DNA from: an uncultured Candidatus Rokubacteria bacterium
Lineage (GTDB): Bacteria; Methylomirabilota; Methylomirabilia; Rokubacteriales; DASRDR01
Length of the DNA: 64,000 nucleotides
NCBI GenBank assembly: GCA_963826115.1
Contig: CAWGVS010000010.1
Location: 541,444 to 605,443, forward strand
Reading direction: 5' to 3'
The translations under genes were made by a program, and so were the position numbers. Of the stretch, positions 25,118-31,681 are shown piece after piece. A model generated the notes under the pieces. The model worked only from the letters and a program-made list of their open reading frames with translations, was not told the DNA's origin and ran no database searches. Every line of letters begins with the position of its first letter. The first letter of the stretch is position 1.

Positions 25118-27211
25118 TCAGTCGCTATCGAGAAGGCTGCCGACCTCAAACGGCTTCGGAGCCTTCGCTGGAGCCTTGGCGGCGGTTCCCGGCAGGATCT
25201 CGAAGTCGGGGGTGAATCCGACGAGGCTCGTGCGCAACTGGTCGAACCCCTTGCGGTCGCCATCGAACTTCGCCTTGCCGGCCGCGATCAGATCGTCGAA
25301 CGACGACAGTCCCATCATCACCTGGTTCAGATCCGCGCGGTTGACGGTGATCGTGAGATCCGGCTTCGGCGCCAGAAAGCCCTCGATGTTGGTCAGCGTC
25401 GCGTTGGAGACCTCGATTGCGTACTTCTCGCCGTTGTCGGGCGTGACGAGGTTGATGGAGGTCCTGATTCCCGCGGCCTTCGTCGGATCCAAGCTGATGC
25501 CCACGAAGTCGAGAAACTGGCCCGTGGTCATGGCGCGCACCACGTCCGGTCCAGTCGACCGTGCCGCTACGCCGCCCGACAGACCGGAGCGCAGTTCGAA
25601 CGCCCCCATCAGGAAGGCGTTGCGCACGCTCGTGCTTTCCGACTGGTATCCAAGCTGCTCGTAGGCGTCGGCCAGCAGATCGCGGGCTGGCCGGTTCTGA
25701 TGCTCGGCAAGCACGAGCCGGTTGAGAATCTCGACAGCGGCAAGGTACTTTCCCTGGTCCATCAAGTCCCGGCCCTTCGTCATGATCTTCGCGGAGCCAC
25801 CCATCATCTCGACGTACAGCGGCGCCGCGTCCTGCGGCGAGAGCGGGACCAGGTTGGCCGGATTGCCGTCCCAGTGGCCGAGGAAGCGGTTGACCACGCC
25901 ACGCACGTTGTTGCGCACATCGCCGTGGTAGCTGCGGGCGGCCCATTGCTGCTGGAGGCTCTCGGGCACTGTGTAGACGTTGTGGATCTCGTTGATCGTC
26001 ACGCCCTGATTGACGTAGTGCAGGGTCTGGTTGTTGAGGTTGGCGTAGGTGTCGCGCTGCGTGCGCAGCACCTCTTGGATGCGCGCGTTGCCCCAGCGCG
26101 GCCAGCTGTGCGAGGCGAACATCACCTCGGCTTCCTGGCCAAACACGTAGAGCGCGATGTTGAGCTCCTTGGACCAGTTGAGCGCATCGCGTACGCGCGC
26201 GCCGCGCAACGTGTAGATGTTGTGGATCGTCCCGGTGAGGTTCTCCGCCGTCCACAACGCCTTGAACTGCGGGAAGTAAGTGTGCGCCGCGGAGGGCGCC
26301 TCGGTGTCCGGCGTGTCCTGGAACACCATCCTGACGCCATCGAGTGTGATCTCCTCGAACCGCTTCGAGATCACATGGTTCGGCGCGATCAGCCCGACAT
26401 GGCCGGCGGGCGTGTTCTTGCCGATCGCCTGGTCCACGTGACCGAATGGGTTACGATCCAGCAACACGGCGAACTGCCACTGCGAGCGTCGCGTCATTGC
26501 GTTGCCGGCAAAGACGTTTTCCGCAACCGCCGCCTGCATAAAGTTCGATGGCGCGATCACCTTGACCTTGCCGCTCAGCACGTCGGCCTCGTCCACCACG
26601 CCGCGCACGCCGCCGAAGTGGTCGACGTGCGAATGCGAGTAGATGACGCCCACGACCGGACGTGTGCCGAGCTTCTCATTGATGAAGGCAAGCGCCGCGC
26701 GCGAGGTTTCCGTCGCCGTCCCCGGATCCATGACGATCCAGCCGGTGTCAGACTTGACGAAGGTGATGTTGGTGATGTCGAAGCCACGAACCTGGTAGAG
26801 GCGGTCGGGCACGACTTCGTACAGACCGAAGGCCATGTTGAGGATGGCCTGGCGCTGCAGCGAGGGGTGGATGCTCTCGAAGTCATTGCCCGTGAGCAGC
26901 CACTGATAGGCCTCCATGTCCCACGCGACGTTGCCAGCATCGGCCATGATCTTCTTGAACGGCGGCACCGCGATCAAGCCGCGCTTGTTTTCCTCGAGAT
27001 CCCGCTCGTCCTGGAACGGCAGCGACGCCTTGAGGCCGTTGCGAAGCGCAAGCGTGAACGTGGACGGCGGCTTGCCCCTCGGGTCGAAGTGGCCGGCGGG
27101 CGCCGCCGGCTGCTGAGCGAGCGCGTTGTTCGTCATGGCAAAGGAAACGCCAACCGCGACGGCGACGCCGGTGGCGGCCAGTCGTTTCGTGAACGAGCGT
27201 CTTGCGTTCAT
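25118..27211 (-). CDS. Alkyl sulfatase, SdsA1/BDS1 family (metallo-beta-lactamase fold plus SCP2 domain)
   Basis: Signal peptide; SIHPSLQRQ, HSHVDHFGG, HNIYTLRGA, HSWPRWG, WDGNPANL. Confidence 0.92.
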   Translation of the reverse strand: MNARRSFTKRLAATGVAVAVGVSFAMTNNALAQQPAAPAGHFDPRGKPPSTFTLALRNGLKASLPFQDERDLEENKRGLIAVPPFKKIMADAGNVAWDMEAYQWLLTGNDFESIHPSLQRQAILNMAFGLYEVVPDRLYQVRGFDITNITFVKSDTGWIVMDPGTATETSRAALAFINEKLGTRPVVGVIYSHSHVDHFGGVRGVVDEADVLSGKVKVIAPSNFMQAAVAENVFAGNAMTRRSQWQFAVLLDRNPFGHVDQAIGKNTPAGHVGLIAPNHVISKRFEEITLDGVRMVFQDTPDTEAPSAAHTYFPQFKALWTAENLTGTIHNIYTLRGARVRDALNWSKELNIALYVFGQEAEVMFASHSWPRWGNARIQEVLRTQRDTYANLNNQTLHYVNQGVTINEIHNVYTVPESLQQQWAARSYHGDVRNNVRGVVNRFLGHWDGNPANLVPLSPQDAAPLYVEMMGGSAKIMTKGRDLMDQGKYLAAVEILNRLVLAEHQNRPARDLLADAYEQLGYQSESTSVRNAFLMGAFELRSGLSGGVAARSTGPDVVRAMTTGQFLDFVGISLDPTKAAGIRTSINLVTPDNGEKYAIEVSNATLTNIEGFLAPKPDLTITVNRADLNQVMMGLSSFDDLIAAGKAKFDGDRKGFDQLRTSLVGFTPDFEILPGTAAKAPAKAPKPFEVGSLLDSD

Positions 27212-27480
27212 CGTCTTTTCCTCGGAGGCCTTGTGCGGCCTTGTTCGTCTGTGGGAGCCGACTGCCGCGGACTCCACTGTCAATGATTCCCCCAAGAGGG
27301 GCCGTCTCCCGTTTCCCAGGGGGGGGGGCCCTCCGTAGGCGCCAGGCGATGATCGTGAGCCAATTGAGCCTTCGCTCCTCCGACCCCGCGGCACCGGCCG
27401 CCGGCGACCGGGAACAGCCGCACGATGAAGGTCAGGGGCCGGGGCGGTCATCTTGTCTCCGCCCGAGGTATCGGATGGCC

Positions 27481-27902: not shown

Positions 27903-28088
27903 GTCCTCGTGCTCGATCGTGTGGATCTGGGTTGGATGCTCGCGGGACCGGCCCGAGCGGGGTTCAGGGGATCGCGAAGCGCGCGGCCCATTCCGCGAAC
28001 GCCTTCAGGAATGTCGCGAGAAGGCCGCGCGGGGTCTCGTAGCCCTCCGGTCCGCCGCCGGGACGCGGCCGGCGCCCCTGATGGCGCA

Positions 28089-29742
28089 TCAGCGCCTCTC
28101 CGTCGGAGCGTCCGCGAGCACGGTGTGGAGCTGTGGCACCACCGCGGCGCCCTCGCCGATCGCCCCGCCCACTCGCTTCGCGGACCCGGCAGCGGACGTC
28201 GCCGATCGCGAACACGCCCGGGATGCTGGACTCGAGCGGTAGCGGGCGAGGCTGGTGGTCGTCCGCTCCCGTCCGGACGAAGCCCTCCGTGTCCAGCGCG
28301 ATCCCGCACTCCCGGAGCCAGCCCGTCGCCGGCTCGACGCCCACGAAGAGGAAGACGTGTCGGATCGGGAGCTCGGTCTCGTCGCCCGTCGTGTCGCGGC
28401 GCCAGCGCACCTGGGCGAGATGGGATCCTGGTCCGGGAGTCAGCCGGGTCATCTCGGTCCGGGGCAGGACCTCGATGTTGGTCGTCGCCTCGATGCGGTC
28501 GACGAGATAGCGCGACATGCTCGTGTCGAGGGACTCGTGCCGGACCAGGACCGACACCTTCGCGGCGAAGCCGGACAGGAACACCGCCGCCTGGCCGGCC
28601 GAGTTGCCGCCCCCGACCAGCGCCACGTGCTCCCCGCGGCAGAGACGCGCCTCGACCGGCGAGGCCCCGTACCAGACGCCGCGGCCCTCGACGGCCTCGA
28701 GGCCGGGAATGGGCGGCCGCCGGTAGCGCGCCCCGCAGGCCACGACGATCGTCCGGGCCCTGACGCGGCGCCCGTCCGTCGTCTCGAGAGTGAACGGAAA
28801 CGTCGCGCAGTCCAGTCGCGCGACGGGGCTCGGGATCACGATCTCGGCTCCGAACTTCTGCGCCTGCACGAAGGCCCGGCCGGTGAGGTCCTGGCCTGAG
28901 ATGCCCTCCGGGAAGCCCAGATAGTTCTCGATGCGCGAGCTCGCCCCCGCCTGGCCGCCGAACGACCGGCTCTCGAGCACGATCACCGACAGTCCCTCGG
29001 AGGCGGCATACACGGCCGTCGCGAGCCCCGCCGGCCCCGCGCCGACCACCGCGACGTCGTACGTCCGGTCGAGATGATCGACGCGCACCATGCCGAGGGC
29101 GCGAGCGAGATCGACCTCGGTCGGGTTCCTGAGCACCGATCCGTCGGGGCAGACCACGACCGGCAGATCGGCGTCGTTCGCCGCGTGGTGCTCGAGCAGG
29201 GCCGCCGCCTCCCGATCGACGGCGGGATCGACCACGCGATGCGGGCCGGCATTGCGGGCGAGGAACCCCTGGAGACGGACGACGTCCGGATGGACGGCTG
29301 GCCCGATCAGGACGGGGCCGCCCCCACCGGTCTCGATCAGGCCGACCCGGCGCAGGAGTAGCGCGCGCATGATCCGCTCGCCGAGCTCGGCCTCCGCGAT
29401 CAGCACGGTGCGCAGCCCGTCGGCGGGGATGACGAGCACGTCGGCGTCGCGCGTGGCTCGCGCGTCCACGAGGCGGGGCTGGCCCGCCAGCATGCCGGTC
29501 TCGGCCAGGAAGCCGCCGGCGCCGAGCTCGATGATCGGGACGACCTGGCCCAGACCGCCCCGGGCGCTGACGTCGACGGTGCCGGAGAGGAGCACGAACA
29601 TGCCGGAGCCGACGTCGCCGGTCGTGACGACCGGCTCGCCGGCCGCGTAGCGGCGGACCGTCCCGAAACGCCGAAGTCGGTCGATGTCCTCCGGGCCGAG
29701 GCTCGGAAACATCTGGCCGAGGCGAGGGTCAGGGTCGGGCAC
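28089..29742 (-). CDS. cNMP-binding domain plus thioredoxin-reductase-like FAD oxidoreductase; one-base frameshift near 28189
   Basis: cNMP domain, GAGPAG, GGQAGASSRIENYLGFP, GGGNSAGQ; after FAIGDVRC the conserved GSAKRVGGAIGEG...RR-stop continues in another frame. Confidence 0.88.
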
Positions 29743-29751
29743 GGTCCAGGC

Positions 29752-30750
29752 TCACGCGGGTCGTGCCTCGCCCGAGGGTTGCCCGCTCTCGAGCGCCGGG
29801 ATCGCCGGCGGTGTCACGCCGCGGACCGGGAAGCCCAGAGACATCCACCGCGCGACGCCCCCCTCGAGGGGGTGGACGCGCGTGATCCCTCGTCGCTCGA
29901 GCAGGAGCGCCACCCGGGCGCTCGTGGCTTCGTTGGGTCAGGCGCAGTAGAGCACCAGCTCGCGATCCCGCGGGACGTCCGCCAGGTGCTCGTCGAGCGC
30001 CTCGGCCTTGATCCAGCGGCTGCCCGGGATCGCGAACGGGGTGGCGACCACGTCGAGCGCGGTGCGGACATCGAGGATGGCCACGTCCTCCCCGGCGTCG
30101 AGCTTCTGCTTGAGCTCGTAGGGCGAGATCCGGGCGATCCGGAGCCGATGGAGGAAGAGGCGGCGCCGCACGTACTTGAGCAGCACGTAGCCGACGAGAG
30201 CCGCCACAACCAGGACTCCCGCGGTGCGCCCCAGGGAGGCGACGCGCTGGGCCACCACCTCGATGGTCTCGCTGAAGACGTAGCCCAGCCCCGCCCAGAG
30301 CCCCGCCCAGAGGAGCACGCCGGCGAGGTCGTAGAGCACGAAGCGGAGGCGGGACACGCCGAAGATCCCCGCGAGGGGCGGCATGACGGTGGTCAGGCCC
30401 GGCAGGAACTTCGCCACGAGCAGCGCGCGGACGCCGTGGCGCAGGAAAAGGTTTTCCGTCCGGCGGACGCACACGTCGGGCTCGAGCGACAGCCGGCAGA
30501 GCCCCGAGAGCACGCGCGCTCCGCGCCGGCGGCCCAGCTCGTGCCAGACGAGGTCGACGGGCAGGGTGACCACCGCGATCGCGCCGAGCACCAGCGGCAG
30601 GCTGACGCGGTCCTGCGCCGCGAGGGCGCCGACCGCCAGGAGCGCCGGGACCGCGGGGAGCGGCACCCCGACCTGCTCGGCGACGACGAGGATCGGCAAG
30701 ATGACGAAGCTGTACCGCTCGAGGAGCTGCACGCTATCGGCGAGGTTCAT
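29752..30750 (-). CDS. DedA-rhodanese fusion, predicted selenoprotein (UGA at 29938-29940 read as Sec), 332 aa
   Basis: DedA motifs (EQVGVPLP, AKFLPG); LYCA-TGA-PNEATSARVA...LEGG...W stays in frame for 61 more codons; hairpin at 29905-29923. Confidence 0.85.
29905..29923 (-). promoter_or_regulatory. Candidate bacterial SECIS element
   Basis: Sense strand GAGCGCC-CGGGT-GGCGCTC, 7-bp stem with G-rich loop, starting 14 nt after the UGA. Confidence 0.7.
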
Positions 30751-30844: not shown

Positions 30845-31681
30845 CTACGACTTGATGAACGCCAGGAGGTCGGCGTTGATCACGTCGTGGTGCGTCGTGG
30901 CCATCCCGTGAGGCAGGCCCTTGTAGACCTTGAGCTGGGCCTTCCGGACCCGCTTGCTGGAGAGCATCGCGCTGGCGCCGATCGGGACGACCTGATCGTC
31001 GTCGCCGTGCATGACGAGCGTCGGCGCGTCGATCCGCTCGAGGTCTTCGGTGAAATCCGTCTCGCTGAACGCCTTGATGCAGTCGTAGGCGGCCTTGACG
31101 CCGCACATCATCCCCTGGCGCCACCAGTTGTCGATGAGTCCCGGCGAGACCTTCGCCCCGGGGCGGTTGAAGCCGTAGAACGGGCCCGTCGGAACGTCCC
31201 GGAAGAACTGCGCCCGGTCGGCCAGCAGCGCGGCGCGGAAGTCGTCGAAGACCGCGAGGGGCAGCCCGCCCGGGTTGTTTGCGGTCTTGACCATGATCGG
31301 CGGCACGGCACCCACCAGGACCGCCTTGGCGACCCGGCCCCTCGCTCGCCCGGCGCCGTGGCGGCCGATGTAGCGCGCGACCTCGCCGCCGCCCGTGGAG
31401 TGGCCGACGTGGACGGCGTTCCTCAGATCGAGCTTCTCGGTGAGCGTCACGAGATCGTCCGCGTACGTGTCCATCTCGTTGCCGTCCCACGTCTGGGTCG
31501 AGCGCCCGTGTCCGCGGCGGTCGTGGGCGATGCACCGGAAGCCGCGCGACGCGAAGAAGATCATCTGGGCGTCCCAGTCGTCCGCGCTGAGCGGCCAGCC
31601 GTGGCTGAAGACGATGGGCTGCCCGGTGCCCCAGTCCTTGTAGAAGATCTGCGCGCCGTCCTTCGTCGTGACCGTGCTCAT
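30845..31681 (-). CDS. cpo: Non-heme chloroperoxidase / perhydrolase (alpha/beta hydrolase)
   Basis: [46 protein letters not shown]. Confidence 0.93.

Follow-up and report, generated by a model that had tools for sequence, protein, structure and literature searches.

A predicted selenocysteine-containing DedA-rhodanese fusion protein in an uncultured Rokubacteria bacterium

An in-frame UGA within a membrane-fused rhodanese gene

Within a 64,000-nucleotide stretch of DNA from an uncultured Candidatus Rokubacteria bacterium (hereafter the window; C10:541444-605443 of a 6.24-Mb assembly in 12 contigs with 72% G+C), a minus-strand gene ends in annotation at an in-frame UGA and is very probably best explained as a genuine selenocysteine (Sec) gene encoding a 332-residue membrane protein, in which a DedA domain is fused to a rhodanese domain. 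On the comparisons set out below, this UGA (codon 271) is almost certainly decoded as Sec. A first-pass annotation, made from the letters of the window, had proposed a hidden selenoprotein here, and our analysis supports it: selA, selB, selC and selD all score above curated cut-offs in this genome, the TGA is shared with relatives rather than unique to this assembly, and the stem of a downstream hairpin is kept in TGA-bearing homologues and relaxed in those with Cys, so that none of the three observations named beforehand as telling against the proposal was made.

The stop-to-stop open reading frame (ORF) on the minus strand (30750..29938) yields 270 residues with the C-terminus ...RELVLYCA, followed by TGA. 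Past this codon the frame continues for 61 codons, beginning PNEATSARVALLLERRGITRVHPLEGGVARW... / PNEATSARVALLLERRGITRVHPLEGGVARWMSLGFPV..., until a second in-frame TGA (29754..29752) ends it, and 9 nt further on the next minus-strand ORF opens with GTG (29742); the earlier description of LYCA-TGA and an open frame reaching almost to the next gene was correct in every statement about the sequence. Pfam recognises two domains in the 332-residue read-through product, VTT_dom (PF09335) at residues 94-157 (38.2 bits, cut-off 33.9) and rhodanese (PF00581) at residues 209-303 (41.7 bits, cut-off 22.2). The latter match straddles the TGA and is complete only across it, as had been predicted. The gene and its parts are as follows.

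29752..30750, minus strand: coding sequence of the predicted DedA-rhodanese selenoprotein, ATG at 30750, 332 codons and a stop TGA (29754..29752); from translation with TGA read as Sec and homologue alignments spanning residues 1-320+
30151..30723, minus strand: DedA (VTT) membrane domain, approximately residues 10-200, limits estimated; from PF09335, hhalign to YghB and a helical AlphaFold2 model
30460..30501, minus strand: Arg-rich loop motif LCRLSLEPDVCVRR, residues 84-97, with Cys85 and Cys94; from conservation in the alignment
29842..30126, minus strand: rhodanese domain, residues 209-303, split by the UGA in annotation; from PF00581, NF041203 and Foldseek
29944..29946, minus strand: codon for Cys269, aligned with the canonical rhodanese catalytic Cys; from hhalign to GlpE, the AlphaFold2 model and invariance in homologues
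29940..29938, minus strand: UGA codon 271, predicted to be read as Sec; from TGA in 62 of 98 distinct homologues and Sec machinery in the genome
29905..29923, minus strand: hairpin resembling a selenocysteine insertion sequence (SECIS), 7-bp stem GAGCGCC/GGCGCUC, loop CGGGU, 14 nt 3' of the UGA; from homologue comparison

Conservation of the UGA and of the frame beyond it

A six-frame search with the read-through protein covered 61 genomes (the window's own and 60 relatives), from which 30 loci were aligned. TGA stands at exactly codon 271 in 29 of the 30 loci from relatives, within the context C-[AST]-U-P-[NSK]-E, and the remaining locus has TCA (Ser); dropping the single genome marked as unpublished (L049) leaves 28 of 29. 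One genome from each of 185,579 species was scanned, giving 500 confirmed relatives, and among the best 80, which were kept, codon 271 was TGA in 43, Cys (TGC/TGT) in 33 and Ser in four. Pooling both sets gave 110 loci, reduced to 98 distinct homologues once identical 105-nt contexts were removed: 62 with Sec (TGA), 33 with Cys and three with Ser. The 62 TGA sequences are 46-83% identical to the window protein and are spread over several phyla by record label, although labels of metagenome-assembled genomes (MAGs) can be wrong: Sec forms are labelled Rokubacteria/Methylomirabilota, Acidobacteriota (Terriglobia, Bryobacterales, Thermoanaerobaculia), Verrucomicrobiia, Dormibacterota and Binatia, and Cys forms mainly Nitrospirota with some Terriglobia. 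The commonest motif around the UGA in homologues is YC[ST]U (LVLYCAU in the window), and all 33 Cys forms read YC[AS]CPNE, bearing out the earlier claim that the UGA occupies a Cys position.

Downstream of the UGA, residues P272, G288, P294, L295, G297, G298 and W302 are invariant in a 36-sequence alignment, and the 62 Sec forms vary synonymously at P272 (CCC 44, CCG 15, CCT 2, CCA 1), E274 (GAA 35, GAG 27), A275, L282 (four codons), L284, R286, G288, R291 and V292. Invariant residues combined with ordinary synonymous variation indicate that the frame after the UGA is translated and under purifying selection.

A maximum-likelihood tree of the 98 sequences (quick search, unrooted) contains at least eight changes between Sec, Cys and Ser, five of them forced by well-supported branches. 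It includes a Nitrospirota clade of 25 members, all with Cys, and places the Ser forms in one clade nested among Sec forms. In this Ser clade the loop decays, with P272, N273 and E274 all altered (PNE to SDD, PND or AYD), and one member, a single case, lacks both C85 and C94; the clade looks like a recent loss of redox function. The window's genome also carries a second DedA-rhodanese gene (C6:1155478-1156404), 52% identical to the first, which reads LYCSUPSEATSARVAL and has the hairpin AGCGCC-CGGGU-GGCGCU. By sequence comparison, Sec is retained in both deep clades of the DedA-rhodanese family.

The first-pass annotation had expected standard pipelines to call such a gene truncated, and databases agree. 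Among the best 120 matches in 5.8 billion proteins, 92 terminate immediately before the TGA (90 in YC[AS], two in HCS), including the window's own 270-residue protein and the NCBI entry 'sulfurtransferase [Candidatus Rokuibacteriota bacterium]', and these short entries bear the DedA Pfam domain only. The rest comprise 13 full-length Cys forms, 11 full-length Ser forms, three full-length proteins not captured by the pattern and one odd entry of 296 residues. No NCBIfam model (release 20.0) scores at or above its cut-off on the DedA-rhodanese fusion, so pipelines will keep truncating it. The gene and dozens of soil and groundwater homologues (labels Rokubacteria/Methylomirabilota, Acidobacteriota and others) are stored as 270-residue 'DedA' or 'sulfurtransferase' fragments, with neither the rhodanese domain nor the selenium site.

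A hairpin constrained together with the UGA

The hairpin reported by the first-pass annotation 14 nt after the UGA (GAGCGCC-CGGGT-GGCGCTC) lies at 29923..29905. Its inner 6 bp (AGCGCC/GGCGCU), which start 15 nt after the UGA, are letter-identical in 60 of 62 Sec forms, compared with seven of 33 Cys forms; at least six of the seven stem pairs form in all Sec forms and four to seven in Cys forms, with mean folding energies of the 19-mer of -11.1 kcal/mol and -6.2 kcal/mol, respectively. Loops in the Sec forms are CGGGU (44), CGUGU (nine) and a few variants, and 61 of the 62 follow the pattern [CA]G[GT]G[TCA], the other being AGGAT. The rules of Zhang and Gladyshev (2005) for bacterial SECIS elements reportedly call for a G early in the apical loop and for a distance of 16-37 nt between UGA and loop; the loop in the window, C-G-G-G-U, starts 21 nt after the UGA and agrees with both.

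Codon usage provided an internal control within the same phylogeny. At columns with amino-acid conservation of 85% or more, median codon entropy in Sec forms was 1.27 bits over 101 columns, and just seven columns fell below 0.25 bits. Five of these seven are the TGA itself, S277 (AGC in 62/62), A278 (GCC in 60/62), V280 (GTG in 56/56) and A281 (GCG in 62/62). In the 33 Cys forms, by contrast, entropy reached 1.64 bits at A278 and 1.42 bits at A281, and S277 and V280 were not conserved even as amino acids (SARTAF, AARMAL and others). Hairpin codons frozen in Sec forms and relaxed in Cys forms show that the RNA, and via the RNA the peptide, is constrained only in the presence of the UGA. The outer seventh pair joins two third-codon positions, with 5' C facing 3' G in 12 of 16 cases and 5' G facing C or U in 27 of 45, a weak covariation that, among related sequences, serves as a hint rather than a test. 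L076 and L082, the Cys forms closest to Sec forms, still carry the hairpin, as do the Ser loci (L036, L077, L079, L085 and L089, with TCA or TCC), which is expected if these are recent switches. The many natural changes among Sec, Cys and Ser, in sequences that keep the hairpin and in others that lack it, offer a clean series for studying how a coding-region SECIS element constrains a protein.

Metagenomic contigs point to the same region. A soil-metagenome contig of 1,958 nt covers the gene from end to end, ungapped and with 68 differences, and none of the 40 differences listed falls in 29905-29940. In three metagenomes, many short contigs match only a 45-50-nt island (29900-29952) containing the Cys codon, the UGA and the hairpin; these contigs come from other organisms and diverge on both sides, and depth peaks in the island, which is the most conserved DNA of the gene and of its family. 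One contig from an RNA library covers 29794-29942 with four differences, although DNA can occur in such libraries, so that transcription is not demonstrated by it. In the search of sequencing runs, no run contained half of the query words, and parts left uncovered carry no meaning.

Selenocysteine machinery of the genome

ARAGORN placed a tRNA-SeC with anticodon UCA on contig C8, where the Rfam model RF01852 (tRNA-Sec) scores 76.9 bits (gathering score 47); two other RF01852 matches, both on C12, lie barely above that gathering score. Genes for selA (576.5 bits, cut-off 267.9) and selB (347.8 bits, cut-off 242.25) adjoin the tRNA-Sec at C8:81424-84706, and selD is found on C5 (393.2 bits, cut-off 125). 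Within selD lies a single in-frame TGA (context SHGAGUACKLGP), with an 8-bp hairpin after it. The genome contains the full Sec machinery and at least one textbook selenoprotein gene (selD). Across a survey of 25 Sec-form and 25 Cys-form genomes, with the four Ser-form genomes left out, selA scored above its cut-off in 20 of the former and eight of the latter.

ARAGORN also reported a 'tRNA-Pyl' with anticodon CUA at position 32 (C12:686301-686373). Rfam has no tRNA there at E <= 0.01 and the best PylS match in the genome reaches 28.9 bits against a cut-off of 178, so this call is probably false.

A screen of the whole genome for an in-frame TGA flanked by two stretches of coding-like third-position G+C returned many contexts resembling thioredoxin folds, for example FWATWUPYC, FWTYGUINC, TWASWUGC, STPTUPHC, ADUGSC and three of the form C-x-x-U. 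The screen is crude and noisy, missed both selD and the C6 paralogue, and was used as a lead only; its contexts suggest a genome rich in selenoproteins. A Methylomirabilota MAG has 63 genes predicted to encode selenoproteins (Deng et al. 2026, as reported in a 2026 review).

Position of the selenocysteine in the rhodanese loop

Cys269 is invariant in all 98 homologues, and position 271 switches between Sec, Cys and Ser. Aligned by hhalign, the family profile places the loop Cys of Escherichia coli GlpE on C269 and U271 at loop position +2, with a two-residue insertion later in the loop of the DedA-rhodanese family. An AlphaFold2 model of the protein (mean predicted local distance difference test score 83.9, about 77 around the loop; predicted template modelling score 0.71) has a strand at 264-268, a loop at 269-274 and a helix at 275-286, so that C269 directly follows the strand, the arrangement seen in rhodaneses. 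All Foldseek matches listed are rhodanese domains, and only the rhodanese half of the model was matched. Alignments to solved rhodaneses by phmmer disagree, putting the catalytic Cys on C269 in 6pfz and 3tp9, on A270 in 6mxv and on U271 in 3iwh. Because C269 is invariant while position 271 varies, and given the hhalign alignment and the secondary structure of the model, we favour, as the probable arrangement, a Cys-x-Sec pair whose Cys occupies the canonical site; Sec as the central residue retains a lesser, though appreciable, likelihood.

Two other rhodanese matches in this genome contain an in-frame TGA. The gene at C5:920567-920893 has a signal-peptide-like start and reads VVLYUACPHH, a reversed U-x-C, with the hairpin GGCCAGUUUGGCC about 20 nt downstream of the TGA; it is probably another selenoprotein, and its U-x-C order fits a redox pair in which either member may be Sec. 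The match at C5:319146-319394 reads VVYCWDSAUDLSSRAAW and has a hairpin about 14 nt downstream.

The DedA membrane half and a proposed mechanism

The last hydrophobic helix of the membrane half (approximately residues 175-191) is followed by the strongly basic stretch KYVRRRLFLHRLRIAR. Basic stretches flank membrane helices on the cytoplasmic side (the positive-inside rule), and by this rule both the rhodanese domain and the Arg-rich loop (residues 69-108) would be cytoplasmic. Within this loop, all 36 aligned sequences have C85, E90, D92 and C94; over the wider set, C85 is kept in 61 and C94 in 60 of the 62 Sec forms, and both in all 33 Cys forms. Escherichia coli YghB, to which residues 15-161 align by hhalign with 97.7% probability, has no Cys at these positions, and a DedA-only paralogue in the same genome keeps the R-x5-R motif (RFVTGLR) without the Cys pair. 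A sequence search of solved structures found no DedA structure.

For flippase-type DedA proteins (COG0586), Glu39, Asp51, Arg130 and Arg136 (YghB numbering) are stated to be essential (PMC10127716). The window protein lacks two of these four: E39 corresponds to E25 (kept) and R130 to K114 (basic charge kept), whereas V34 stands opposite D51, homologues having V, I or A there, and T120 opposite R136, where homologues have S, T or N. The NCBIfam UptA and DedA equivalogs fall far below their thresholds, the UptA models reaching 32.3 and 30.2 bits (cut-offs 250 and 300). The DedA domain is real, yet on this one profile alignment it is probably no undecaprenyl-phosphate flippase.

We propose that SelB and tRNA-Sec decode UGA 271, directed by the G+C-rich coding-region hairpin that starts 14-15 nt downstream. 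The product would comprise an inner-membrane DedA (VTT) domain, a last transmembrane helix, a basic stretch and a cytoplasmic C-terminal rhodanese domain, in which Cys269 would occupy the canonical catalytic position and Sec271 lie two residues on within an enlarged loop, C-A-U-P-N-E. Cys269 and Sec271 would probably form a redox pair, cycling between a selenenylsulfide and a thiol/selenol, or act as a persulfide/perselenide carrier. At the face of the membrane, such a pair would act on a species of sulfur or selenium; the divergent DedA domain next to it keeps Glu25 and Lys114 and carries a conserved pair of its own, Cys85/Cys94. The first-pass annotation had called the product a membrane-bound selenoenzyme; comparison supports its Sec and its membrane domain, and its chemistry we infer. 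That a Cys-Sec redox or sulfur-transfer centre is coupled to the DedA domain is a tentative reading, to which we give somewhat less than an even chance. As read here, the gene places a Cys-x-Sec centre at the membrane, next to a domain of the DedA family, which is poorly understood and whose rhodanese fusions are described in print as having an unclear function.

A more specific version, which we consider unlikely, is a transporter-coupled selenoenzyme: the DedA domain would bring a sulfur or selenium species, for example selenite, thiosulfate or a polysulfide, to the cytoplasmic face, a four-residue relay from Cys85/Cys94 to Cys269-x-Sec271 would capture or reduce it on entry, and a flavoprotein, for example that encoded by the neighbouring gene, would recycle the centre. 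A paper by Ledgham et al. in 2005 reportedly describes, to judge by its title, a genetic link between DedA and selenite. If true, a transporter-coupled enzyme would give the DedA family an enzyme-coupled member and this link a mechanism.

Evidence against the interpretation and alternative explanations

The recoding, the constraint on the hairpin, the Sec/Cys pair and the domain architecture are all shown by comparison among homologues, and the recoding is supported as far as comparison alone allows. This limit, together with several of our own results, weighs against a Sec-containing DedA-rhodanese enzyme. The hairpin is unexceptional as a fold: a 51-nt segment folds at -17.1 kcal/mol (z = -0.44), with 59 of 200 shuffles equally or more stable, and the 401-nt region around it has no Rfam match at E <= 10 (the whole 64-kb window likewise has none at gathering thresholds, and no tRNA). 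By itself the hairpin is no better than chance in 72% G+C DNA, and its significance comes from homologue comparison only. There, too, the stem is nearly invariant, with few true compensatory changes, and overlaps the conserved peptide SARVAL, though, as the Cys forms show, this peptide can vary freely. Five of the 25 Sec-form genomes gave no selA match over the cut-off; as these are MAGs of unstated completeness, the misses are not demonstrated absences. Within the rhodanese loop, the ungapped phmmer alignment to 3iwh pairs the catalytic Cys with U271 rather than C269, and, unlike anion-binding rhodanese loops, this one contains no Arg but an invariant Glu274, making classical thiosulfate binding and thiosulfate sulfurtransferase activity doubtful. 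Lastly, there is no conserved operon partner to point to a substrate, the largest cluster of neighbours occurring at 17 of 109 loci; neighbour counts here and below are lower bounds, many loci having just 1.5 kb of flank.

Alternatively, the UGA could work chiefly as a stop signal, or as a switch that depends on selenium, in which case the usual product would be a 270-residue DedA protein with a dead half-rhodanese, full-length protein would be made only under plentiful selenium, and recoding would regulate the gene. The DedA domain is indeed complete upstream of the UGA, and in bacteria the insertion of Sec, for which release factor 2 is a competitor, is often inefficient. However, the truncated product would end within the rhodanese active-site loop, nothing tested favours a function for the truncated form, and the Cys and Ser homologues are always full length. 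We regard a switch as improbable; it would, moreover, also require Sec decoding, and so refines the preferred explanation rather than replacing it.

Reading of the UGA by a suppressor or by a near-cognate ordinary tRNA for Trp, Cys or Arg, instead of tRNA-Sec, appears more improbable again. The frame is clearly translated beyond the UGA, as such decoding requires, and the identity of the inserted residue rests on comparison. Near-cognate decoding would nevertheless leave unexplained a hairpin at SECIS distance that is frozen only in TGA forms, the association with selA (20/25 vs 8/25) and the use of Cys as the alternative residue in 33 forms; the gene's own terminal TGA does terminate, and the only odd tRNA call, the 'tRNA-Pyl' with anticodon CUA, would read UAG and is probably false. 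A pseudogene, fresh nonsense mutation or assembly error, with a broken DedA-rhodanese as the true product, agrees with gene callers stopping at codon 271 but has a negligible probability in view of the same TGA in 62 distinct sequences of 46-83% identity from several phyla, conserved amino acids with synonymous changes downstream, and the independent metagenome contig that covers the gene without gaps.

Relationship to known selenoproteins and rhodanese fusions

Rhodanese selenoproteins with a CxU motif have already been catalogued, including 'COG0607 form 2, CxU' (PMC9312934). The closest NCBIfam model is NF041203 (rhodanese_LYCAU, rhodanese-related (seleno)protein), which has the same L-Y-C-A-U motif with Sec at the same position and matches residues 204-309 on model positions 19-123 of 126 (E = 9e-24). 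The window protein scores 83.5 bits against its cut-off of 115, and in a six-frame search of the genome with this model the window gene reached 79.2 and the C6 paralogue 78 bits, no site attaining 115. The 126-position model describes a rhodanese domain alone, whereas the window protein has a 200-residue DedA domain in front. On sequence grounds, we interpret the protein as a new architecture (a DedA fusion, below the NF041203 cut-off) of an already known type of selenoprotein domain.

Escherichia coli YgaP, likewise anchored in the inner membrane, is a rhodanese whose domain order is the reverse of that in DedA-rhodanese proteins. It shares the rhodanese fold (PDB 5hbo, 5hbl and 2mrm; Foldseek ranks 32, 40 and 50) at 20-21% identity, and has neither Sec nor a DedA domain. 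TsoB (NF045694; Haft and Tolstoy 2025), rhodanese/DsbD fusion-like by name, is also a membrane-fused rhodanese selenoprotein, with a different membrane domain and, as given in a review table, a UxxxxU motif with two Sec; the window protein scores 19.3 bits against its cut-off of 805. Closer in architecture, judging from their descriptions, are Cys-type DedA-rhodanese fusions, namely COG0586 DedA with PF00581 (PMC10127716) and Pseudomonas aeruginosa PA1209 (PMC12893004). The accessible parts of these two papers describe no Sec form, and call the link of the rhodanese domain to undecaprenyl phosphate unclear. A Sec-type DedA-rhodanese fusion was not found in the searchable literature, which excludes supplementary tables that may list one, and neither selenoprotein review (the 2026 review; PMC9312934) mentions DedA, SNARE or PF09335.

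Gene neighbourhood

Three neighbouring genes, all on the same strand, were annotated around the DedA-rhodanese gene.

25118-27451, minus strand: alkyl sulfatase gene, with metallo-beta-lactamase fold and Alkyl_sulf domains
27964..29742, minus strand: gene for a cyclic-nucleotide-binding and thioredoxin-reductase-like flavoprotein (Pfam cNMP_binding and Pyr_redox_2), starting 9 nt downstream
30845-31681, minus strand: alpha/beta hydrolase gene, preceding the selenoprotein gene

Flanking ORFs were clustered all against all, a procedure in which many clusters consist of wrong-frame ORFs of high-G+C DNA. The alkyl sulfatase recurs at none of the 109 other loci, and the alpha/beta hydrolase lies beside the gene at 11 of 109, in close relatives only. 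A CusB/RND efflux pair adjoins one Nitrospirales homologue and recurs at eight of 97 loci. From these comparisons, the DedA-rhodanese gene seems to stand alone. The flavoprotein gene is likewise downstream at three of the 109 other loci (L051, L072 and the Nitrospira Cys form L120) and divergently oriented at a fourth (L115), a weak hint that its product is a possible redox partner or reductant.

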